In this document: positions 27,834 through 55,999 of the stretch, piece after piece
How positions within the stretch are numbered: position 1 is the first letter of the stretch
How the letters are laid out: each line of letters begins with the position of its first letter
Assembly (NCBI GenBank): GCA_002493625.1
Contig: DKZK01000010.1
Location: 74,810 to 138,809 of the forward strand
Reading direction: 5' to 3'
Length of the DNA: 64,000 bases
Origin: Lachnospiraceae bacterium UBA7076
Lineage (GTDB): Bacteria; Bacillota; Clostridia; Lachnospirales; Lachnospiraceae
Position numbers and translations under genes: made by a program
The notes under the pieces: generated by a model
The model's input: the letters and a program-made list of their open reading frames with translations, nothing else
Told to the model about the DNA's origin: nothing
The model's database searches: none

Positions 27834-28745
27834 TTATCCATATATCTGACTTGCAACCAGATTATCAAGTATGCTTACAAGCTGTCCTATCTCAGGCTTA
27901 CTTATCTGTGAATCGGCGCCCAACGCTTCTCCCTTTCGTTTCATGTCATCATTTATAAGTGACGAGAATACTATGATTGGAATATGCTTTAAACCCTCCG
28001 TATCCCGGATAAGCTTTATAAGCCTGTGTCCGTCCATCTGCGGCATTTCAATATCGGTTATAATACATTTTGCCCCATAATCAACGCCGTTATTTTTCTT
28101 AAGCTCACACAGATAATCCCAAGCTTCCTGACCGTTGTTCTTAACCGTAAGCTTATTGTAGCCCGCCTTATAAAGGGAATCCTTTATCAGTGTGCAAAGC
28201 AGACTTGAGTCCTCAACAATAAGCACAGGAATATCATTTCTTTCTCTTGACTCAAGCTTTACAATCTCCGAAACCTTAAGGCTGGTCTCAGGACAAATCT
28301 CCTCAACAATGCGCTCAAAGTCAAGTATTATAAGAAGGTTATCCGCATTTTTTATAATACCTGTCGCAACTCCGGAGCCGGGACCGCTCACTGTTGAATC
28401 CGGCTTTACCACATCCGTCCACGAAACCCTGTTTATGCCAATCACTGCCTGAACATCAAATGCAATATTAAGATTATTGAAATTTGTTACAATAAGAAAA
28501 TTGTTTCTGTTATCATTATTTTGAAAGCCTAATGTTTTGATAAGGTCAATTACAGTAATGATATCTCCACGGGGCATAAATATGCCCTCAATACACGGAT
28601 GAGAATTTGGAACGGGAGTAATATTTTGGAACTGCAATATTTCTCTGACTTTCTCAACATTTATGCCATAGTGGTTTCCTTCAATGACAAATTCCAATAC
28701 CTCCAGCTCATTTGTTCCGCTCTCAAGTAAAATATTACTATCCAT
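27834..28745 (-). CDS. cheV: chemotaxis protein CheV (CheW domain + receiver)
   Basis: N-terminal CheW-like domain and C-terminal REC (VLIVEDS, IITDIEMPQMDG, SKP). Confidence 0.85.
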   Translation of the reverse strand: MDSNILLESGTNELEVLEFVIEGNHYGINVEKVREILQFQNITPVPNSHPCIEGIFMPRGDIITVIDLIKTLGFQNNDNRNNFLIVTNFNNLNIAFDVQAVIGINRVSWTDVVKPDSTVSGPGSGVATGIIKNADNLLIILDFERIVEEICPETSLKVSEIVKLESRERNDIPVLIVEDSSLLCTLIKDSLYKAGYNKLTVKNNGQEAWDYLCELKKNNGVDYGAKCIITDIEMPQMDGHRLIKLIRDTEGLKHIPIIVFSSLINDDMKRKGEALGADSQISKPEIGQLVSILDNLVASQIYG

Positions 28746-28758
28746 ATCAAACCTCCTA

Positions 28759-29535
28759 TTATTGTAATTGCATAACTTTATCTAAACCGTCATACGTTAT
28801 CTTAAGCTTTAAGTCATCAATATTATCCGTAAGCTCTGCAGAAATCTGATATATAAGTACGATTTCCCCGCGGCTGCTCGCCTCAAGAGTATCCTGGTAT
28901 GTATACATATCATCAAGCAAAATCGTCAGCATCTGCTTTGCGCTTTTCGAATCGTTTATTATAATGCTATAATTTGCATCCTTGGAATAAAGGTCAATAT
29001 ACTGATTATCATTTGTTTTATTTTCCAATTCAAATTTTAAGACAAGCAGCTTATATCCGCTTTGAGCTTCAATCTCAAAATATACCCCATCCTTGTCATA
29101 GGAAGGATATGTATCAAGCAGCATATAATAGGAATAGCGGATGTTAATATTATCCTCACCTAAAAATTCCGCTATGTTAAAATCAGCAGGCGCATCGGAA
29201 ACGATACCATTTACATCCTCAGCGTCAACCGGTTCCTCCGTTATTACGTTTCCAGGATGATTTGTTCCTGTCTCTGTAGAAGCCTCCGTTTCAGTAGCAG
29301 TATTCTCAGGGGATATCTCAATGACAGCCTCAGTGGAATTAAGCGCGTTGACCTCCGCTTCAAACAAGCCTTTCTCATATTTTGAGTTGACATTCCTGTC
29401 GTATTTTAATAATAACCCTCCTGCATACTCCGCAATCATCTTACTTTCATCATCCGTTAAATCTATAACCTGGGCGCATCCCACAAGAAAAAGTGACAGA
29501 ATCAGGATACTGCAGGAAAACCATCTTTTTTTCAT
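28759..29535 (-). CDS. lipoprotein of unknown function
   Basis: Lipobox LFLVGC after MKKRWFSCSILILS. The ATG at 29535 lies 6 nt after GGAGG. It is the last gene of the RR-HK operon. Confidence 0.7.
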   Translation of the reverse strand: MKKRWFSCSILILSLFLVGCAQVIDLTDDESKMIAEYAGGLLLKYDRNVNSKYEKGLFEAEVNALNSTEAVIEISPENTATETEASTETGTNHPGNVITEEPVDAEDVNGIVSDAPADFNIAEFLGEDNINIRYSYYMLLDTYPSYDKDGVYFEIEAQSGYKLLVLKFELENKTNDNQYIDLYSKDANYSIIINDSKSAKQMLTILLDDMYTYQDTLEASSRGEIVLIYQISAELTDNIDDLKLKITYDGLDKVMQLQ

Positions 29536-29595
29536 ATGCTTCCTCCGAATCATTAAACATAAATTGTATCCTAATTCTATCACTTTTTTTTCATA

Positions 29596-31071
29596 TCAGC
29601 AAGGCATATTCGCATCTAAATCAAAATAAAAAACTACGCCTTCCTCTGCATTGAAAACTCCGTAATCCTTTCCATGTGATTTCATTGCCGCCGCCACAAT
29701 GGAAAGCCCTATGCCGCTGCCGCCGTATTCCCTTGTTCTTGCCTTGTCAACCTTATAAAATTTGTCAAACAATCTGTCTATATCCTCATCCGGTATTTTT
29801 TCTCCCTGATTGAAGACAAAAACTCTTACGTTGTCTTCCGTACGGTCAAACGTGATTCTTATATCCCCGCCGGGCTTTACATGATGAATTGCATTTGTAA
29901 GATAATTTGTAAACACCTGCTCAATCAGGAATTCATCTGCCCATACATAAACAGGTGCGGCTTCATCGAATAAAATCCTTGCCCCAGCCTCCTCCACAAG
30001 AATGGATGACGCATCAATAATATTTTTTATAAAATCAACAAGCTCAAACCGTTCAAAGCTAAGGGTTGACTGTCCGAATTCAAGCTCATTTAGGTTGAGC
30101 AGCTTCACTACAAGCTCATTCATTTTCTTCGCTTCATCTATAATAACATCCGTGTAAAACTCCCTGCTTTCCATATCATCCGACAAATTACACCTTAATC
30201 CCTCCGCATACCCCTGAATAAGCGCAATGGGAGTTTTCAGTTCATGGGAAACATGAGACAGAAAGTCCTTTCGCATATCGTCAATCTGCTCCTTTTGCTC
30301 AATATCCTTCTTTAGCTTTGCATTGGCTGCTTTCAGCTCGGAAATTGTACTTTCAAGCTTTTCAGACATTTCATTCATACAGGTGCCAAGCTCACCGATT
30401 TCATCGTTTGTAAAAACAGAAGCCTTAACGTCAAAATCAAGGTGCGTCATTCTTTTCGCAACATTACAAAGACTTTTTATCGGCGCAGAAAAAATATTGC
30501 CGAATGCAAGAATAAACATGGAACCGAAAATAAGCAGGCCTATTGCCACCTTAATAAATACGTTTTTGACAACAAAAACCACGCTGTCAATTCTTGAAAC
30601 GGGACTCCTGACTATAATGTTGAAGCCATTGTCAAGACGTCCCACCAAATCATAATAATCCGCATTTATTACCTCATCATGATTTTTAGTGATAACATAA
30701 TTTGAGTATACATTTCTGGAAATAACATCTGCCGTTTCCATAGACCTTATGGCATTATTCAGGCTTTCCATTATACGGCTCTCGTCATTTATGGATGTAT
30801 ATATTTTCACATTCTTACTGTCAAATATAAGAATTGTTGCATCCAGCGGATTATAAATATTTCCGTAAAGGTCATTTGTCCCATAATTCCCGTCCTGATT
30901 TTGAGAGAAAAAACCATTGCAGGATTCATATGTGCTTTTTAAATTATTCTTCACATTGGACACAAAAATATCCTCAATAAAAAAATTACATATAATCCAT
31001 GATGCCATCAATATAAATGCACAGAAATTAATTACCATGAAAGTAATTTTGGTTCTTATTGAGCTTCTCAT
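29596..31071 (-). CDS. sensor histidine kinase (two TM, HAMP, HisKA, HATPase_c)
   Basis: H box HVSHELKTPI, N box LTNAIHH, G box GGSGIGLSIV. Confidence 0.9.
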   Translation of the reverse strand: MRSSIRTKITFMVINFCAFILMASWIICNFFIEDIFVSNVKNNLKSTYESCNGFFSQNQDGNYGTNDLYGNIYNPLDATILIFDSKNVKIYTSINDESRIMESLNNAIRSMETADVISRNVYSNYVITKNHDEVINADYYDLVGRLDNGFNIIVRSPVSRIDSVVFVVKNVFIKVAIGLLIFGSMFILAFGNIFSAPIKSLCNVAKRMTHLDFDVKASVFTNDEIGELGTCMNEMSEKLESTISELKAANAKLKKDIEQKEQIDDMRKDFLSHVSHELKTPIALIQGYAEGLRCNLSDDMESREFYTDVIIDEAKKMNELVVKLLNLNELEFGQSTLSFERFELVDFIKNIIDASSILVEEAGARILFDEAAPVYVWADEFLIEQVFTNYLTNAIHHVKPGGDIRITFDRTEDNVRVFVFNQGEKIPDEDIDRLFDKFYKVDKARTREYGGSGIGLSIVAAAMKSHGKDYGVFNAEEGVVFYFDLDANMPC

Positions 31072-31073
31072 AT

Positions 31074-31748
31074 TTAAACCTCGAATTTATATCCCATGCC
31101 CCAGATAGTCTTAATGTAATCTCCTCTGTCTCCCAGTTTGCTTCTAAGCTTTTTTACATGGGTGTCTATCGTTCTTGCATCTCCGAAATAATCATAATTC
31201 CAGACATTATTTAATATCTTTTCTCTTGAAAGGGCAACGCCCTTATTTACAAGGAAATAATTTAAAAGCTCAAATTCCTTGAAGCTGAGCTCAATTTCTT
31301 CACCGTCCACAAGAACCTTGTGTGCGGATATATCCATTTTTATTCCTCCGCATTCAATATTTTTCTCATCCCCTGCAAGACTGCTTCTCCTTAAAACCGC
31401 CTGCACTCTTGCAACAAGAATTTTAGGACTGAAGGGCTTTGTAATATACTCGTCAATACCAAGCTCAAAACCTTTTATCTCATCCTTTTCATCGCTTTTT
31501 GCCGTAAGCATAATGATAGGCACCATGGAAATTTTTCTTATTTCCTGTGCAACACCATATCCGTCAAGCTTAGGCATCATAACATCCAATATAATAAGCG
31601 CTATGTTCTTTGTGGACATGAAAACATCTACGGCTTCTTCACCGTTTGAAGCCTCCAGAACACCAAAGCCCTCCTTTACGAGAAAGTCCTTTACCAGCTT
31701 TCTCATACGGCTTTCATCATCTACAACAAGAATTTTTAACCCCTCCAT
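31074..31748 (-). CDS. OmpR-family response regulator
   Basis: REC (ILVVDDE, IILDVMMPKLDG, ITKP) plus a winged-helix C-terminus (IKTIWGMGYKF). Confidence 0.92.
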   Translation of the reverse strand: MEGLKILVVDDESRMRKLVKDFLVKEGFGVLEASNGEEAVDVFMSTKNIALIILDVMMPKLDGYGVAQEIRKISMVPIIMLTAKSDEKDEIKGFELGIDEYITKPFSPKILVARVQAVLRRSSLAGDEKNIECGGIKMDISAHKVLVDGEEIELSFKEFELLNYFLVNKGVALSREKILNNVWNYDYFGDARTIDTHVKKLRSKLGDRGDYIKTIWGMGYKFEV

Positions 31749-49978: not shown

Positions 49979-51529
49979 TTATTCATTCACTATACCGGAG
50001 GAAAGTTCCAGAAGCTTTATTGAATATTCCTGTCCCTTCAAGGCAATAATGCTGTACGCCTCCTCCTCTGAAATACCATAAGTATCCCAAAGCGCCGTTA
50101 CAATTTTAGCCTTACAGCCATCTAAATTCCCGGCTATTCCAAGCTCCACCGCTTCAGCATAGTGGACATCATGCTTCTCCAAGCCCCTGAGCAGTGCATC
50201 AAGCGCCTTATCAGGGCGGTTACTGGATAAATTATTTTCATATGATTCATACAACCGCTCAACATACATAACCGTATATATCCTGTCCTTAAGCACCTGA
50301 TCATCCTCTTTTACATCAACACCCGATACCTCATCATATGCCAGTCTGTATCTCTGCCTTTCAAAATAATCATCCGCCTTCTTTATAACCTGAGAATAAT
50401 TAAATATACTTGAGCCAAGCACAATCAAAACACCAAGCGCAATAAAAATTACAAAAACTATAACGACAGCAGAAGTTGAAAGCTTCTTTTCATCTTTTTC
50501 AGCCTCAAGCTCCGCATTTAATTCTTCAAGCTTCTCCTTTTTCTTTTTATCCTTTTCTTTTTTCTTTTCCTGCTCCTGTTTTTTCTTTAATGCTTTTTTC
50601 TCGTTACTCTTAGCTTTCTTCTCCGCCTTAATAACATCTTTCTCAGCCTTTTTTTCTTCTTTTTCGGCTTTTTTTGCCTGAAGGCGGCGTTCCTCCTCCT
50701 CGTCATCCTCGTCAGGCTCTCCAAATAAAATTACGGAAAGAGATTTTTTTCCTCCATTTTCTCCTTTTGATTTCTTTGCACCCTTTTCTCCAATGTCCTC
50801 AATATCATCAATATCGCTATTCTCAAAGTCCAATTCCGTGGCGCCGTCAAGCATATTGTCAACCTGACTCTGATTGGTGGTATAATCATCTTCATCTGAC
50901 GAATTATCATCATCTATGCCAAGTGCAGAGAATAAATCGTCAAGATCCATATTTTCCACATCACCAGACGCCTCCATATCTGCCCCCATGGCATTTCCGG
51001 TATCCTCTCCAAAAGCATTCAACTCATTCATAGACATCCCAAACATTTCCTCATCCATACGCTGTTCCGTTTCCGCCTCACTAAACACCTCCTCGTCAAA
51101 GGAAAGAGTTTGTTCCGGCATTGGCTCAGGTTCATATTCCGGCTCAGACACATTTTGAAATTGAGCCTCCTGCGCCTCTGCTTCGCTCTCCATGAAGATG
51201 TCCTCTCCGGATGAAGAATCCGGAGTTTCCTGTGTCTCGGCAATGAGTGATTCCATATCAAAATCCACGTCATTTGACTTATTACCAACCACAGGTTTTT
51301 CACTGCTGAGCTTTGTAACATCAACGTCGTCAAAATCTATGTCATCTAATTCCAATGAAGATAAATCGATATCATCAAGTGCATCCAATTCATCCAATGA
51401 GATATCCTCCACATCGGAAAAATCTATATCAATGCCGGAGTCTTCTGACATACTTTTATCAAAGCTGTTTTGTTGTCCGTTATTCCCTGATAACTCGCCT
51501 AATAAATCGTCAAGATAATTTTCGTCCAT
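49979..51529 (-). CDS. highly acidic low-complexity membrane-anchored protein
   Basis: 516 aa. About one residue in three is D/E over the first ~280 aa. A K/E-rich stretch, one TM helix (VVIVFVIFIALGVLIVLG) and a ~140-aa C-terminal domain follow. The ATG at 51529 lies 6 nt after GAGGAG. Confidence 0.65.
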   Translation of the reverse strand: MDENYLDDLLGELSGNNGQQNSFDKSMSEDSGIDIDFSDVEDISLDELDALDDIDLSSLELDDIDFDDVDVTKLSSEKPVVGNKSNDVDFDMESLIAETQETPDSSSGEDIFMESEAEAQEAQFQNVSEPEYEPEPMPEQTLSFDEEVFSEAETEQRMDEEMFGMSMNELNAFGEDTGNAMGADMEASGDVENMDLDDLFSALGIDDDNSSDEDDYTTNQSQVDNMLDGATELDFENSDIDDIEDIGEKGAKKSKGENGGKKSLSVILFGEPDEDDEEEERRLQAKKAEKEEKKAEKDVIKAEKKAKSNEKKALKKKQEQEKKKEKDKKKKEKLEELNAELEAEKDEKKLSTSAVVIVFVIFIALGVLIVLGSSIFNYSQVIKKADDYFERQRYRLAYDEVSGVDVKEDDQVLKDRIYTVMYVERLYESYENNLSSNRPDKALDALLRGLEKHDVHYAEAVELGIAGNLDGCKAKIVTALWDTYGISEEEAYSIIALKGQEYSIKLLELSSGIVNE

Positions 51530-51752
51530 TCCGCACTCCTCATATCTACAATATTTTTTATTTATTGTTGTTTTAATTTTGTCACACAATTATAGTAATA
51601 ATACCACATACAAGTTTAATTAACAAGATTTTTGCATTCATTTCGACAAAAGCTTATTATTGATTTTTTTATTGTTATGTTATATTATATGAAATGTATT
51701 TATATATAAATTTGATTTTCATTTTTAAAATATACATAAGGGGGTGTTTTTT

Positions 51753-51953
51753 ATGAAATCAACATTTTTCGTAGAATTTTACGGAAAACAGGTGGAAGAA
51801 GCAGCGCTTATCAAGACGGCAAAAGAAATATGGAAAAACAGCGGCAAGAAAGCGACTGATTTAAAATCTTTAAATTTATATGTAAAGCCTGAAGAAAATA
51901 CAGTTTACTATGTTTTCAATGATGACGAATCCGGAAGCTTTGCTATTGATTAA
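51753..51953 (+). CDS. small hypothetical protein (66 aa)
   Basis: The ATG at 51753 lies 8 nt after AAGGGGG. It is followed directly by a strong terminator. Confidence 0.6.
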   Translation: MKSTFFVEFYGKQVEEAALIKTAKEIWKNSGKKATDLKSLNLYVKPEENTVYYVFNDDESGSFAID

Positions 51954-51957
51954 AAGA

Positions 51958-51990
51958 CAAAAAAGACCGAAAACAATCGGTCTTTTTTGT
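51958..51990. terminator. bidirectional intrinsic terminator
   Basis: AAAAAAGACCGA-AAACAA-TCGGTCTTTTTTGTTTT between convergent genes. Confidence 0.85.
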
Positions 51991-52006
51991 TTTGTGGGAG
52001 AATCGC

Positions 52007-52417
52007 CTACACATCGAAATAATCATCATAATCACCATTGGCATATGAACGTGTATAATTGACATTATTTGCCCTCTTTACCTTAGGCTGTGGTCTGCTG
52101 CTCTCTCTCTTTTTGTTCTGCTTCTTTTTAATGGATTTTTGTTCCTTCTCTAAACGAAGCATCGTTTTATTTTTATCAGGTATTGACACTGACGATTTAT
52201 TATCCTTTGGACGGGACGGTCTGCTTCTTCTTCCGTTTTCCTCCTCATCATCCTTATCCTTTGGAGAATATCTGGGGGTATAGCTTTTATTGCCATATCC
52301 GCTGCTCTTTTCACCCTTTTTTTGATATTTCGGTCCATTTGCAGTACCCGGTCTTGTATAATCCCTTTTTGGTTTGTTTTTTCCGGAACCAATATCATTT
52401 GTCCCTTGCGTTGCCAC
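52007..52417 (-). CDS. basic low-complexity (K/R/S/P-rich) protein, GTG start
   Basis: The GTG at 52417 lies 8 nt after GGAAGGAG. The ATG at 52453 in the ORF track has no SD. The sequence looks disordered. Confidence 0.5.
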   Translation of the reverse strand: MATQGTNDIGSGKNKPKRDYTRPGTANGPKYQKKGEKSSGYGNKSYTPRYSPKDKDDEEENGRRSRPSRPKDNKSSVSIPDKNKTMLRLEKEQKSIKKKQNKKRESSRPQPKVKRANNVNYTRSYANGDYDDYFDV

Positions 52418-52534
52418 TTTTGTATCTCCTTCCAAAATAATAGAATAAATCATATACTATATTACTTTAGATAATTCTTACTCGTCAACATATATTTTTA
52501 AAAAAATATACATAAATTGTGTTCAATCGTCACC

Positions 52535-53326
52535 TTATGCATGCATTTTATATTCAATTCTCAGTTTATCTGCAATCAAAGCTATAAATTCAGAATTAGT
52601 CGGCTTACCCTTTCCGGCGCTTACCGTATATCCGAACATTTCCTCAATAACCTCTATTTTTCCCCTGCTCCATGCCACCTCAATTGCATGCCGTATAGCC
52701 CGCTCAACACTACTTGATGTCGTCTTGTATTTTTTAGCTATGCTCGGATATAAAAGTTTTGTAATAAAATTCAGCATATTCATATCATTTATTGCCATAA
52801 TAATGCCTTCCCGAATATACTGATACCCCTTTATATGCGCAGGTATTCCGATCTCACGTATAATCTCCGTAACATCATTTTCAATTGAAGATTCCTGCCG
52901 GCTCATATTTGCCCTCGCATCAATCTCCACAAGCTCATCCTCCTTAGATAAGCCTGCAATCTGTATAATTCTCTTTGCCAATATTTCAGGATTACACGGC
53001 TTCATAATGTAATAATCTGCTCCAAGATTAAATGCCATGCTTATTATACGTGGTGAACCCACGTTAGTAATAAAAATAATGCTTGTCCCTGAAAATTCTT
53101 CGTTTGCACGTAACTGCTCAACAACCTCAAGTCCGTCAACATTTGCAATAAATACATCTATCAGAAGAACATCCGGCCTGTATTCTGAAACAATATCACA
53201 AACAGCCGCTCCATCATCCGTTGTACTTACAATATCAATAGTATCTCCACTTTGAACCTGTAATTGCTTTGATAGGATTTCATAGCCTGCATCTGCAATT
53301 ACAACCCGAACTTTTTGTTCAGTCAT
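52535..53326 (-). CDS. spo0A: Spo0A-type sporulation response regulator (paralog B, near-canonical receiver)
   Basis: The C-terminal Spo0A_C signature is [55 protein letters not shown] retains the phospho-Asp (LLIDVFI), Thr (FITNVG) and Lys (IMKP), but the acidic pair reads ADA. The ATG at 53326 lies 7 nt after GGGGAG. Confidence 0.9.
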
Positions 53327-53377
53327 AACAATCTCCCCTTTAGCTATTCTCCATATCAATCATATAACCATATGGAG

Positions 53378-53406
53378 ATAATATAATTTCATTTTTTCAT
53401 TGTCAA
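53378..53406 (-). promoter_or_regulatory. sigma-A-type promoter of spo0A paralog B (TTGACA-17-TATTAT)
   Basis: On the minus strand, -35 is at 53401..53406 and -10 at 53378..53383. An exact TGTCGAA (0A box) lies on the minus strand at 53437..53443. Confidence 0.6.
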
Positions 53407-53452
53407 GGTCGAATTTGCATATTTTACCAATAATATTTCGACATATTGTGAC

Positions 53453-54241
53453 CTAAGCACTTTTCATTTTACTGTCAAGTCTTATCTTATCGGCAATAAG
53501 CGCTATAAATTCCGAATTTGTAGGCTTTAATTTTCCCTGATTCATTGTATAGCCAAACAGTTCATAAATTGTATCTGTTTTCCCTCTCCCCCATGCAACC
53601 TCAATTGCATGTCTTATTGCCCTTTCAACTCTTGATGAGGTTGTTCCGTACTCCTTAGCAATCGAGGGATATAGCTGCTTTGTTATGGAATTTAAAACAT
53701 CCATGTCACGTACCGCCATGATAATGGAGCTTCTTAAATACTGATAGCCCTTTATATGTGCCGGAACACCGATCTCATGTATTATCTCGGTAACCTTCCG
53801 TTCCAGGTTACTCTCGTAAATTTCATCTGAATTCTCACATATGTGAATCCCTTTTTGTTTTGATTTGGATGTATTTATTATTTCCTGAAATAAATCAATT
53901 CCGTCTGCCGCTTCATCAATTATGTTTATGTATATATTATTTAATTTTCCCTTGTATATTTTTTCCAAAAATTTTATCTGGCTCATATTGGCCTTTACAA
54001 GAAATTTAAACGGGCAATTTTCCCTTTTATCTATCTCATCCATTATGGCAATGCCATCTAAATTTGGCAGCAATAAATCGATAATTACAATGTCAGGATT
54101 ATATTTTAAAATTCCGTCCATTCCCTCCTGACCATCCGTAAAACAGCCGCAGACATAAAAGTCTTTCTTTGTCTCAAGCATGACCCTTAACTCGTTCGCG
54201 CTTCTCAAATCATGCTTGATAACAAGTACCTTTATTCTCAT
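53453..54241 (-). CDS. Spo0A-like regulator (paralog A, degenerate receiver domain)
   Basis: The C-terminal Spo0A_C signature is [52 protein letters not shown]. In REC only the central Asp (VIIDLLLP) is recognisable. The acidic pair reads KHD, and the Thr and Lys-Pro positions are not conserved. Confidence 0.85.
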
Positions 54242-54276
54242 AACATTTTCCCTCTTTTCATTTTGTTTTCACTGCC

Positions 54277-54305
54277 ATTATAGCTTTGGAAAATATAGGT
54301 AACAA
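54277..54305 (-). promoter_or_regulatory. sigma-A-type promoter of spo0A-like paralog A (TTGTTA-17-TATAAT)
   Basis: On the minus strand, -35 is at 54300..54305 and -10 at 54277..54282. Confidence 0.5.
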
Positions 54306-54315
54306 GACCAAAGAG

Positions 54316-54330
54316 GTCGCAAGTTGCGAC
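54316..54330. promoter_or_regulatory. 15-bp palindrome GTCGCAA-G-TTGCGAC 10 bp upstream of the -35
   Basis: Perfect 7+1+7 palindrome. It has the same GTCGCAA core as the intergenic repeat family and is one substitution from the 0A-box core. Confidence 0.45.
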
Positions 54331-54414
54331 ACTAGGATTTGACAACATTTTCAGTCAAAAAAATAAGGGTACTGTCACACGCAGGTAAATTCCTGGTACA
54401 ACAGACCCGTTATT

Positions 54415-55311
54415 TTATATATTAATATTCATCCTTGCCCTGGGATGCGCCTTATCATATTCCTCTTTTATTTTACTTCTTCTGCTTCTTAAATATATCT
54501 GTGTTGTTGAAATATCCGAGTGCCCTAACATCTCCTGAACTGCCTTTAAATCAGCTCCGTTATTTACAAGATGTGAAGCAAATGAATGTCTTATCATATG
54601 AGGTGTAATTTCCTTGTCTATTCCGGCTTTCTTTGCATAGGATTTTATAAGCTTCCAAAATCCCTGTCTCGTCATCTGTGCGCCCTTCAAATTTGTAAAC
54701 AGATACTCGCTTCCCTCGCACATGCTCTCCCTTGCATTATTTATATAATTTTCCAGAGCAGCTCTCGCTGCATTTTCTATAGGTATAACACGTTCCTTAT
54801 TTGAATCCTTGCATAAAATATAACTCATGGATAAATTTACATCCTCAAGCCTGATTGAAATAAGCTCCGATACTCTCATGCCTGTGGCATATAAAAGCTC
54901 AAGCATAGCCTTATCCCTTATCTCCTTTGGCGTCTGCTTTGACGGCTGCTCAAGCAGTAAATTTATCTCCTCAATATTAAGAATCTCCGGTACCTTCTTT
55001 TCTATCTTAGGCGGCTTAATCTGCTCTGTAGGATCAGAAGCAATAACACCTTTTTTCAAGAGATACATAAAGAATGATTTTACACTTGCAATGTTTCTCG
55101 ATATTGTAGCTGATGACATCCCCTGCTTTTCAAGCGACAGTATGTATGAGGAAAGCTCTGTAGAGCTTATTGCCGTTATGGAGACAACATCCTTATCCTC
55201 AAGGAAAACGCAAAGCTTAATCAAATCTCTTTTATAGGAAGCCATTGTGTTATTACTGGAATGTTTTACTTTATTTAAATAATCAATGTAATCATCTACA
55301 TATTCTCTCAT
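54415..55311 (-). CDS. xerD: tyrosine recombinase XerD
   Basis: 298 aa with an N-terminal SAM-like domain and catalytic R..HxxR..Y residues (ATGMRVSEL, HMIRHSFASHL, LGHSDISTTQIYL). Confidence 0.88.
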   Translation of the reverse strand: MREYVDDYIDYLNKVKHSSNNTMASYKRDLIKLCVFLEDKDVVSITAISSTELSSYILSLEKQGMSSATISRNIASVKSFFMYLLKKGVIASDPTEQIKPPKIEKKVPEILNIEEINLLLEQPSKQTPKEIRDKAMLELLYATGMRVSELISIRLEDVNLSMSYILCKDSNKERVIPIENAARAALENYINNARESMCEGSEYLFTNLKGAQMTRQGFWKLIKSYAKKAGIDKEITPHMIRHSFASHLVNNGADLKAVQEMLGHSDISTTQIYLRSRRSKIKEEYDKAHPRARMNINI

Positions 55312-55344
55312 GAGTAACCCCTCTTAGACCTAACGCATAAGAAC

Positions 55345-55373
55345 ATTATAATGATTAATTTACATAAAATCAA
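55345..55373 (-). promoter_or_regulatory. sigma-A-type promoter of xerD (TTGATT-17-TATAAT)
   Basis: On the minus strand, -35 is at 55368..55373 and -10 at 55345..55350. An exact TGTCGAA lies on the minus strand at 55412..55418. Confidence 0.55.
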
Positions 55374-55444
55374 ACACATTTTTCTGCGAAAAGTGACGAT
55401 TTTAAGCCATTTTCGACACACGGTACAATATAGCCGATTTTAAA

Positions 55445-55999
55445 TTATCCAAGCACCATATATTGATAATATTTAAATAAAAAAAATCTCGAAAAAAATC
55501 CTTCACACATGACCCCAATGGAAAATAATATGGCAAAAAGTATTAAAATTTTTGTTTTTTCGTATCCGTTCCCTGCATAATAATCATACAGCAACTTTAT
55601 AATTAAAATATATACTATGTAATGTGGCAGTAAAAAAACGAGAAGAATCATCATGCCGTTCATGCCCAGATAATAGCTTTGAACTGTTGCCATAATTCCA
55701 AACATTCCACTTATAATTACAAGCAGGGTATTATAAACGTATTCTGTCTTAAGCACCTTCATCAGCATCCATATAATGGCAAGCTGTTTCCCCCGCTTAA
55801 ATATAATATAAATGATAGACGGCGCCATCCTCGAGGAAAGTACATCTCTCATATCATAAGCCGACAGTGTCAGATATTCAAAGTCCAGTCCCCTCCTTAT
55901 AAAAAGATTTATCAAAAAACTCGATAAAAAAATTGTGACAAGAAGTATCACCCTTCTTCCACCCTTATACATATAATTGCTCGTTTCCACCGCCTCCAA
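55445..55999 (-). CDS. polytopic membrane protein, SpoIIM-like (tentative)
   Basis: About 5 TM helices, with size and position (between nudF and xerD) like SpoIIM in Bacillus and Clostridium. Sequence similarity was not verified. The start is uncertain: TTG at 55999 or ATG at 55972. Confidence 0.45.
   Translation of the reverse strand: MEAVETSNYMYKGGRRVILLVTIFLSSFLINLFIRRGLDFEYLTLSAYDMRDVLSSRMAPSIIYIIFKRGKQLAIIWMLMKVLKTEYVYNTLLVIISGMFGIMATVQSYYLGMNGMMILLVFLLPHYIVYILIIKLLYDYYAGNGYEKTKILILFAILFSIGVMCEGFFSRFFLFKYYQYMVLG

Follow-up and report, generated by a model that had tools for sequence, protein, structure and literature searches.

A conserved tandem pair of Spo0A paralogs with altered phosphorylation pockets in gut Lachnospiraceae

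Spo0A is the master regulator of entry into sporulation and the textbook example of a master switch graded by phosphorylation, and finding it in a gut bacterium serves to predict spore formation. It was found in single copy in 107 of 118 Spo0A-positive genomes by Galperin et al. (2022, bioRxiv 10.1101/2022.02.25.481979), who had already noted paralogous spo0A genes in Clostridiales, with two genes in 10 genomes and three in Anaerostipes hadrus. At the level of gene counts, these paralogs are the same phenomenon as the pair that we describe here, contained in a 64,000-nucleotide stretch of Lachnospiraceae bacterium UBA7076 (hereafter, the window). Galperin et al. give counts alone, and we found no mention of a tandem arrangement, of two lineages, of active-site loss or of promoter differences, with the two-spo0A genomes of the supplementary tables not itemised. 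A first-pass annotation of the window had taken Spo0A as normally single-copy, which these counts support in general, but in this branch of Lachnospiraceae a tandem pair is the rule.

A receiver substituted in the acidic pair, the Thr or the Lys is considered a pseudo-receiver, and the second residue of the acidic pair (DD2) binds the metal directly; Thr to Ala changes and DD2 loss are the commonest in the census of PMC12632262. That review does not mention Spo0A. Paralogs of Spo0A are, then, already known, and it is for a pseudo-receiver form that we found no published description in the open-access literature.

Two described pairs of response regulators are comparable to our pair, whose members we call A and B. 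Like A and B, BldM and WhiI of Streptomyces belong to a single family, and they govern a developmental programme; one of them has an atypical pocket and the pair works as a coincidence detector (PMC4125116). Unlike A and B, they are of the NarL/FixJ type, their genes are not adjacent and they are not recent tandem paralogs; also, their heterodimer was shown by experiment, whereas A and B are linked only by co-inheritance and adjacency. Likewise, CmrR and CmrT of Clostridioides difficile are two regulators of one family encoded side by side, one typical and one with a likely pseudo-receiver, and the models proposed are heterodimers or a constitutive member controlled through its expression (PMC12548384). 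They differ in being OmpR-family proteins encoded in an operon with the kinase gene cmrS, and in that the atypical member of the module in the window is the ortholog of the ancestral master regulator.

The two genes are adjacent and co-oriented on the minus strand: spo0A copy A (53453..54241, 262 aa) encodes a pseudo-receiver and a Spo0A_C effector domain, and spo0A copy B (52535..53326, 263 aa) a receiver without the second acidic residue and the same type of effector domain. We start B at an ATG just preceded by AAAGGGGAGA; the mechanical list of open reading frames begins it instead at an upstream TTG (53359). Pfam Spo0A_C (PF08769) scores 149 bits for A and 150 bits for B, and both surpass the curated cutoff of 200 bits of the Spo0A equivalog model, NCBIfam TIGR02875 (237.2 and 281.3 bits, respectively). 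The effector domains are 72% identical (84/116) and the receiver halves about 19%, and the recognition helix is invariant across the A and B lineages. The first-pass annotation had given these genes and lengths, with two Spo0A effector domains around 70% identical, barely alignable receivers and a shared recognition helix, and all of this was borne out. The receiver plus Spo0A_C architecture and the recognition helix are also those of canonical Spo0A from B. subtilis, G. stearothermophilus and C. difficile, and the effector domains of the window share ca. 65% identity with the solved structures 1LQ1 and 1FC3.

The Pfam Response_reg model (PF00072) aligns to A over profile positions 1–77 of 111 (41.7 bits) and to B over positions 20–110 (62 bits). 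The AlphaFold model of A (pLDDT 87.8) retains the receiver fold, with Foldseek TM values of 0.9 against the Spo0A-C structure 1LQ1 and of 0.78–0.80 against the Spo0A-N structures 1QMP and 5WQ0. That of B (pLDDT 81) contains a regular receiver of five strands and five helices and a disordered linker at residues 127–144; among PDB entries, B matches the Spo0A receiver 5WQ0 with E=3e-20.

Active-site residues were assigned by aligning the proteins with B. subtilis Spo0A in MAFFT, and the assignments agree with the register of the secondary structure in the AlphaFold models. The complete receiver active site, with two acidic residues, the phospho-Asp, a Thr or Ser and a Lys, is absent from both proteins. 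Only the phospho-Asp, one of the five residues, remains in A (K/H/D/A/N): K9-H10, followed by D11, replaces the D10-D11 pair of canonical Spo0A, D55 is kept, A84 occupies the Thr position and strand 5 is not followed by the switch Lys. Four of the five remain in B (D/A/D/T/K; D12-A13, D57, T87 and K109), which departs from canonical Spo0A in lacking the second Asp and in the effector substitutions H162R and R211S (B. subtilis numbering). All 69 B orthologs lack an acidic residue at the metal-binding DD2, so B is formally a pseudo-receiver too, although a Thr or Ser is present in 69/69 and the Lys in 67/69. Under the definition of PMC12632262, A is a pseudo-receiver through the lack of DD1, DD2, Thr and Lys, sharing Thr to Ala and DD2 loss with those catalogued there, and B through the lack of DD2, which it also shares with them. 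Neither is an aspartate-less receiver (PMC4395418), because the phospho-Asp is retained in both; D55 of A, conserved in 84 sequences, and D57 of B are invariant.

The initial reading of the B pocket, with phospho-Asp, Thr and Lys kept and an A-D-A sequence at the acidic pair, agrees with these assignments. For A, the solitary Asp, the K-H-D motif and the lost Lys were correctly recognized, but the Thr position aligns to the Ala of the KAN motif and not to a Lys. The prediction that A cannot be phosphorylated normally gains from the absence of four of the five residues for normal phosphotransfer; conversely, the view that a single copy bears a pseudo-receiver gives way before B.

The pair is not an oddity of one assembly. 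In each of the 34 loci from related species that leave room downstream, A is followed by B. Coprococcus hominis and Eubacterium sp. MSJ-21 are among the carriers, and the pair recurs in dozens of independent assemblies, from metagenomes and also from isolates, which rules out the assembly artefact that the first-pass annotation had already thought unlikely. The reading frame of A is unbroken in more than 100 protein clusters and its receiver shows dN/dS values of 0.007–0.19 in seven species pairs, several saturated dS values being excluded. A reading of A as a pseudogene in decay, or of the duplication as an artefact, could appeal to nothing besides the weak Pfam receiver match of A; it is refuted by the intact frames, the recurrence of the pair and dN/dS values well below 1, to which the confident structure prediction can be added, and we hold it to be extremely improbable.

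Conservation within the receiver of A indicates remodelling rather than the degeneration first supposed. The K-H-D loop has the highest value of the receiver (0.97) and, together with the strand-3/helix-3 loop, is its best-conserved segment, whereas the strand-5/helix-5 region reaches merely 0.35–0.48. In B, the helix-4/strand-5 region is conserved at 0.92–0.98. The invariant phospho-Asp and well-conserved pocket of A would also fit a non-canonical site that can still be phosphorylated. In such a rewired acceptor, D55 would receive the phosphoryl group, metal binding or charge would come from H10 and from D11, which is displaced by one residue, and K9 would replace the strand-5 Lys; indeed, phosphorylation sometimes survives a substitution of the acidic pair, Thr or Lys (PMC12632262). 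Nevertheless, A has exchanged four of its five catalytic residues, two from acid to base, the Thr position is A, G, C, L or an S-shifted variant, never an aligned Ser or Thr, in the window and 35 tabulated relatives, no part of the receiver is less conserved than the seat of the switch Lys, and the Pfam receiver alignment stops at position 77. We thus regard a working acceptor in A as unlikely. As the pocket has been rebuilt, A has probably lost the normal response to kinases.

Related loci form a graded series. The A copies of three of them (L088, L090 and L092) have a canonical D/D/D/(T or S)/K pocket, and Anaerobutyricum-like relatives carry the A-B pair with a fully canonical A. In the early-branching carriers, Anaerobutyricum-like and Fimousia, the full A pocket goes with an operon-like gap of 0–25 nt between A and B; the gap is 119 nt in L088, the third canonical-A locus. 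One intermediate lineage (L084) shows N/H/D/A/K, that is, N-H-D with the Lys kept, and the Coprococcus locus L086 shows K/R/D/G/R; the pocket is lost in the A copies of Coprococcus and of the clade of the window. B is without DD2 also in the loci with a fully canonical A, and the loss of this residue does not, therefore, track the loss of the system.

The first-pass annotation regarded A as the odd extra paralog, and our comparisons reverse this. Of the 11 type-specific positions in the effector domain, A coincides with B. subtilis Spo0A at 6 and B at 1, while the single-copy Spo0A of Herbinix, encoded after recN-spoIVB, has eight A-like and one B-like position. The A orthologs of four relatives (L001–L003 and L084) lie directly downstream of spoIVB, which we take as the ancestral slot of spo0A; in the window itself, xerD and not spoIVB precedes A. 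Within the B lineage, one cluster includes EDO56563.1, which we take to be from Clostridium sp. L2-50. From signature positions and synteny, with neighbour-joining trees as supporting but not decisive evidence, and because single-copy Herbinix Spo0A groups with A, we conclude on sequence grounds that A is the ancestral ortholog of ordinary single-copy Spo0A and B the older duplicate, forming a derived lineage. These comparisons show that an old tandem duplication generated the A and B lineages, B being derived in its effector domain and never having had the DD2 acidic residue, and that in the clade of the window the A pocket was turned into one of K-H-D, D and A without the Lys, with retention of the fold, the phospho-Asp and the recognition helix.

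In the same lineages, the upstream regions of both genes show predicted regulatory gains. B is preceded, in the A-B intergenic region, by a predicted sigma-70-type promoter, TTGACA-17-TATTAT (53378..53406, minus strand, 11/12 consensus matches), conserved in about 30 loci and missing where A is canonical and the genes are 0–25 nt apart. A has a promoter-like site, TTGTTA-17-TATAAT (54277..54305, minus strand, 10/12); its TATAAT and the block around it are preserved across 35 loci. The earlier proposal of a sigma-A-type promoter for each gene thus receives good support for B and, for A, comes down to a promoter-like site in a conserved block. Upstream of the -35 of A there is an invariant, partly palindromic 14-bp element, TGTCGCAACTTGCG (54318..54331, minus strand), which resembles a 0A box (TGTCGCA, 6/7 positions); it occurs once in the window, against an expectation of 0, and is present in one copy per locus in 42/42 loci with a degenerate A pocket and in none of the canonical-A loci L088–L092.

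A perfect 0A box, TGTCGAA (53437..53443, minus strand), lies upstream of the B promoter, and a second, inverted 0A-like box, TTCGACC (53407..53413, 6/7), abuts its -35. A single 7-mer match is not significant, with four found in the window against 5.8 expected, so that the evidence is its positional conservation: of the 34 listed relatives, 17 have TGTCGAA at this position, often with TGCGAAA about 10 nt later. In all, B gained a strong predicted promoter downstream of 0A boxes and A an invariant upstream element.

Between the promoter and the start of B there is also a conserved inverted repeat, TCTCCATA-N15-TATGGAGA (53348..53378, minus strand), with changes on both sides in 4/8 pairs. We first read it as a hairpin of the 5' untranslated region, a reading shaken by the position of its 5' arm, whose first base is also the final one of the -10 hexamer; as this places the arm largely before the probable start of transcription, an RNA hairpin and a palindromic operator are equally possible. 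An Rfam scan of 51500..55500 gave nothing above the gathering score, only two weak matches over the terminator hairpin described below.

The neighbours of the pair are xerD, immediately upstream of A, the gene for a small basic protein, DUF6465 and hisH/hisF. The small basic protein (52007..52453, minus strand, 148 aa), downstream of B, belongs to no Pfam or NCBIfam family, and shows 73% identity over its C-terminal 82 aa to the product of its positional counterpart in L001. A strong terminator-like hairpin follows this gene (51957..51990) and there is no terminator-like site between A and B; judging from this layout, the small gene may share a transcription unit with B. A membrane protein (55445..55999) also lacks a Pfam or NCBIfam family. 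No sensor kinase gene was found among the neighbours, so the locus does not reproduce the three-gene arrangement of CmrRST, and Pfam scans retrieved no other sporulation-specific family from the rest of the window. The window does contain FtsK/SpoIIIE-family and ClpP-like genes, which are not specific to sporulation.

The gene adjacent to A on its upstream side is not spoIVB in the window nor in Coprococcus (L086), which would fit a reading of A and B as two phosphorylation-independent remnants from a loss of sporulation, kept, for instance, for metabolism or biofilm control. Along the same line, DD2 is missing from all B orthologs, just 40 of the 99 nearest family representatives keep the five residues, and Spo0A is present in many non-spore-formers (bioRxiv 10.1101/2022.02.25.481979). 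However, DD1, phospho-Asp, Thr/Ser and Lys of B are under strong constraint, many K-H-D loci keep spoIVB immediately upstream, and DD2 is missing from the B lineage even beside a fully canonical A, all of which makes such remnants very unlikely.

We favour, with a probability of roughly 0.6, a conserved two-gene Spo0A module composed of a phosphorylation-independent A and a kinase-responsive B, with cross-regulation through 0A boxes. A would not be switched by normal Asp phosphorylation and would probably act as a phosphorylation-independent regulator binding 0A boxes, its activity being set by the amount made and perhaps also by a new input at the K-H-D pocket. B, which would retain the phosphorylation switch and has a strongly conserved helix-4/strand-5 output face, would be the remaining kinase-responsive member, although B itself may be a poor phospho-acceptor, given the missing metal-binding DD2. 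The 0A boxes before B suggest that its transcription is controlled by A, by B or by both, which would make a two-tier circuit and not simple redundancy. A third, canonical spo0A may exist elsewhere in these genomes.

The first-pass annotation had suggested for A the hypothetical roles of a competitor, a heterodimer partner or an alternative master regulator. By analogy with BldM-WhiI, A and B could alternatively work mainly as an obligate heterodimer on paired 0A boxes, gated by the phosphorylation state of B. Strict co-inheritance and adjacency (34/34 loci), the shared recognition helix and the precedents (PMC4125116, PMC12548384) point in this direction, as does a metagenomic protein (P0316), a natural fusion in which the receiver-plus-Spo0A_C unit occurs twice. 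Two observations speak against it and lead us to see it as improbable: in this clade the genes have separate predicted promoters, and the helix-4/strand-5/helix-5 face is poorly conserved in A and nearly invariant in B. This face is a usual dimerisation surface of response regulators.

Returning to the two-gene module, a more speculative elaboration, which we put forward tentatively and hold as possible rather than probable, is that in a large clade of Lachnospiraceae abundant in the gut (Coprococcus, Wujia and relatives) the K-H-D pocket of the true Spo0A ortholog came to sense a non-phosphoryl cue, such as a ligand, a metal, pH or redox state or a partner protein, while the older duplicate B took over the kinase input; with the new promoter elements, a two-tier circuit would replace the threshold of a single Spo0A.

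Cultured carriers, including Coprococcus hominis CLA-AA-H212 and Eubacterium sp. MSJ-21, make the proposal testable. How pseudo-receivers evolve is listed as an open question in a 2025 review of these domains, and the series from a canonical pair through the N-H-D intermediate to K-H-D without Lys offers a comparative system for the evolution of a working receiver into a pseudo-receiver. A conserved and selected Spo0A with a pocket that is not the textbook one also implies that scoring spo0A as present blurs at least three functional states, canonical, without DD2 and K-H-D, and that a major group of commensals of the human and animal gut may reach the decision to enter sporulation through a different wiring.

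The two tandem, co-oriented Spo0A-type genes reported by the first-pass annotation are present as ORFs on the minus strand, copy A at 53453..54241 (262 aa) and copy B at 52535..53326 (263 aa), the latter with an ATG after the ribosome-binding site AAAGGGGAGA. Both products match the whole of Pfam Spo0A_C (149 bits for A, 150 bits for B) and exceed the curated cutoff of 200 bits of the NCBIfam Spo0A equivalog (237 and 281 bits, respectively). Over their entire length, the C-terminal domains can be aligned to the Spo0A effector structures 1FC3 and 1LQ1 (E about 1e-47). The divergence estimated by eye was borne out, with 72% identity between the effector domains versus 19% between the receiver halves. 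The Pfam receiver model was matched in part, at positions 1-77 of 111 in A and 20-110 in B; the B receiver matched solved Spo0A receivers with E=3e-20, and the best such match for A (E=1.6e-6) spanned residues 2-72 only.

The five active-site residues of the receiver pocket (acidic pair, phospho-Asp, Thr and Lys) were located by alignment to B. subtilis Spo0A, which served purely as a numbering reference (D10, D11, D56, T86 and K108). B has D12-A13, D57, T87 and K109; A has K9-H10 and then D11, D55 and A84, with no Lys after strand 5, and has lost four of the five key residues. AlphaFold2, supplied with an 84-sequence family alignment, modelled A as a complete five-strand, five-helix receiver (mean pLDDT 87.8) with K9-H10-D11 in the loop after strand 1, and the B model combines a regular receiver fold with a disordered linker. 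In Foldseek searches the effector half of A matched Spo0A-C (TM 0.9) and its receiver half Spo0A-N 1QMP and 5WQ0 (TM 0.78-0.80), at just 15-20% identity. On these alignments and models, the earlier description of the pockets holds (K-H-D, a retained central Asp and a missing Lys in A; a D-A acidic pair in B), save that the Thr position of A is Ala and not Lys. Receivers without any one of the five key residues are termed pseudo-receivers, and the second Asp of the acidic pair is a direct metal ligand (2025 review, PMC12632262); A does not qualify as an aspartate-less receiver (PMC4395418).

More than 100 full-length relatives of A, 50-98% identical and nearly all of 260-266 aa, come from Lachnospiraceae. 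Scanning one genome per species with patterns specific to the A receiver retrieved 35 loci, including those of Coprococcus hominis CLA-AA-H212, Eubacterium sp. MSJ-21 and Wujia. All 34 loci reaching far enough have a B-type gene behind A in the same orientation, after a gap of about 40-165 nt, and the same pocket states recur there; this recurrence excludes an assembly artefact. In a rival, less likely reading, A and B would form an obligate heterodimer. dN/dS values were 0.007-0.19 for the A receiver, 0.04-0.075 for the B receiver and at most 0.023 for both effector domains. Conservation in the A receiver family peaks at the K-H-D loop (0.97), followed by the loop after strand 3 (D..LPN.D, 0.86) and N85/Q88/F91, and is lowest in strand 5/helix 5, the usual site of the switch Lys (0.35-0.48). 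The B family shows the opposite pattern, with values of 0.92-0.98 in helix 4/strand 5, Lys in 67 of 69 orthologs and Thr/Ser in all 69. The second residue of its acidic pair is in no case an acid and differs freely between orthologs (S, A, G, K, T, L, I).

The low dN/dS and the conservation concentrated at the K-H-D loop indicate that the A pocket is remodelled and under selection, not simply eroded; four of the five catalytic residues are indeed lost, but 'degenerate', as the receiver had been called, fits less well than 'remodelled'. A decaying pseudogene is ruled out by the same data and by the intact relatives. The A pocket, which keeps D55, may instead be rewired yet phosphorylatable; we nevertheless judge it unlikely, with a probability of about three in four, that kinases switch A in the normal way, because four of the five residues are missing and the strand-5/helix-5 switch region is no longer constrained.

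The first-pass annotation was correct in broad terms, but it had implicitly taken A for the odd, additional paralog, and here the polarity is reversed. In relatives A lies directly after spoIVB, in the order recN-spoIVB-spo0A, and the lone spo0A of Herbinix luporum holds the same place after recN-spoIVB. Among 11 effector positions fixed differently between the two lineages, A matches B. subtilis at 6 and B at 1, the changes in the B lineage including H162R and R211S; Herbinix Spo0A is A-like at 8 and B-like at 1. Neighbour-joining trees concur, weakly, as a purely distance-based phylogeny. Synteny and signature positions thus indicate that the 'odd' protein is the original copy, the ancestral ortholog. 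The genome may have a third spo0A gene at another site.

Three A-lineage loci, L088, L090 (Anaerobutyricum-like) and L092 (Fimousia), contain a fully canonical upstream A copy (ADDNER, D, T/S, KP), and their downstream B-lineage copy already lacks the second Asp. The A copy of locus L084 is intermediate (N-H-D, Ala, Lys retained), and that of an abundant Coprococcus group, whose B-lineage cluster contains EDO56563.1, has K-R-D, Gly and no Lys. This series of canonical, intermediate and degenerate loci indicates that the duplication is old, that B never had the second Asp and that the A pocket disappeared step by step within one part of the tree. Degenerate pockets appear to be common in the Spo0A family: among the nearest 99 full-length representatives of 50%-identity clusters, a sample skewed to relatives of A, only 40 have all five residues, 30 have the [D/E]-x pair typical of B and in 22 the phospho-Asp is missing. 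Separately, P0264 and P0374, representatives of sister groups of the A lineage, show a further step of pocket loss, with N-H-D or N-H-H for D-D and Asn for the phospho-Asp; one cluster of this kind comprises 22 members, NCBI genomes among them.

In the canonical-A loci A and B overlap (L092) or are 25 nt (L090) or 119 nt (L088) apart, the last without an evident promoter. Degenerate-A loci contain a predicted near-consensus promoter in the spacer (TTGACA-17-TATTAT in the window, 11/12), preceded by 0A boxes, the 7-mers bound by Spo0A; the TGTCGAA at 53437..53443 recurs at the same place in 17 of 34 listed relatives, often with TGCGAAA one helical turn later. A conserved inverted repeat, TCTCCATA-N15-TATGGAGA (53348..53378, minus strand), starts at the last base of the B -10 hexamer and has a conserved central 'GGTTAAnTTGATTG'; both arms co-vary in relatives (4 of 8 pairs) and it has no match in Rfam. 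The repeat may serve as a palindromic operator or, if transcription reads through from A into B, fold into an RNA hairpin; no terminator-like site was found between A and B. Upstream of the promoter-like site of A, the 14-bp element TGTCGCAACTTGCG (54318..54331, minus strand), whose left half resembles a 0A box, has a single copy in each of 42 loci with a degenerate A pocket (L001-L038, L084-L087) and is absent from the canonical-A loci (L088-L092). As judged from these comparisons, A and B each lie behind selected cis-elements.

Directly downstream of B, 52007..52453 (minus strand) encodes a Lys/Arg/Ser/Pro-rich protein of 148 aa, without a Pfam or NCBIfam family, whose last 82 aa share 73% identity with the product of the same-position gene in a relative where A itself is only 63% identical. 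This small basic gene is followed by a strong terminator-like site and may be co-transcribed with the pair. Two further neighbours keep their position beside the pair in L001-L003: 49979..51589 (minus strand; 536 aa, strongly acidic in its N-terminal half, with a stretch rich in Lys and Glu, a single predicted membrane segment and weak family matches only) and the adjoining small DUF6465 gene at 51744..51953 (plus strand). A 184-aa multi-pass membrane protein without a family match is encoded at 55445..55999 (minus strand), between a NUDIX hydrolase gene and xerD, a place where other Firmicutes often have spoIIM. About 22 kb from the pair, 27834..31748 (minus strand) contains in a row a CheW-plus-receiver (CheV-like) gene, an unassigned 274-aa ORF and the genes for a HisKA/HATPase histidine kinase and an OmpR-type response regulator.

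The recognition helix of A is unaltered and its effector domain is nearer to canonical than that of B; most likely, A retains 0A-box binding. Its activity would be set by its expression level, which fits the new invariant upstream element, and may also be subject to the conserved K-H-D/D55/N85/Q88 site, which could now serve as a charge latch, bind a ligand or a metal, or make contact with a partner. B would be the better candidate for the kinase-responsive member, given that its phosphorylation site, Thr/Ser and Lys are retained and its output face hardly varies, and may be a slow phospho-acceptor owing to the missing second Asp; alternatively, both proteins may be phosphorylation-independent remnants. 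The 0A boxes preceding B suggest its regulation by A and/or B.

The pair is a variant within two known classes, Spo0A and the atypical response regulators. Its nearest functional analogues, each a typical and an atypical member of a single regulator family that act jointly, are BldM/WhiI in Streptomyces development (PMC4125116) and CmrR/CmrT in C. difficile (PMC12548384). Two spo0A genes were counted in 10 Clostridiales genomes and three in Anaerostipes hadrus, without further analysis (Galperin et al., bioRxiv 10.1101/2022.02.25.481979), and a proteomics study reports the expression of three Spo0A homologs in Faecalibacterium duncaniae (PMC13020158). The pseudo-receiver review does not mention Spo0A (PMC12632262), and we found no description of a pseudo-receiver Spo0A, the tandem A/B lineages or the graded pocket loss in the open-access literature, an absence that is not proof. 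'Faecousia' MAGs (Oscillospiraceae; L042 5123..6756 and L043 2..1375) also have two Spo0A-like genes side by side, each with D-x at the acidic pair, which may be an independent tandem duplication. Metagenomic proteins include tandems of three or four Spo0A_C domains without a receiver (P0241-P0244, P0281, P0315, P0326, P0385), two receiver-plus-Spo0A_C units (P0316), one receiver with two Spo0A_C (P0278) and two receivers with one Spo0A_C (P0246); the use of the Spo0A effector domain extends well beyond the textbook architecture. For abundant gut commensals, the A/B module bears on the textbook model in which a phosphorylation threshold governs entry into sporulation, and direct tests are possible in cultured strains.
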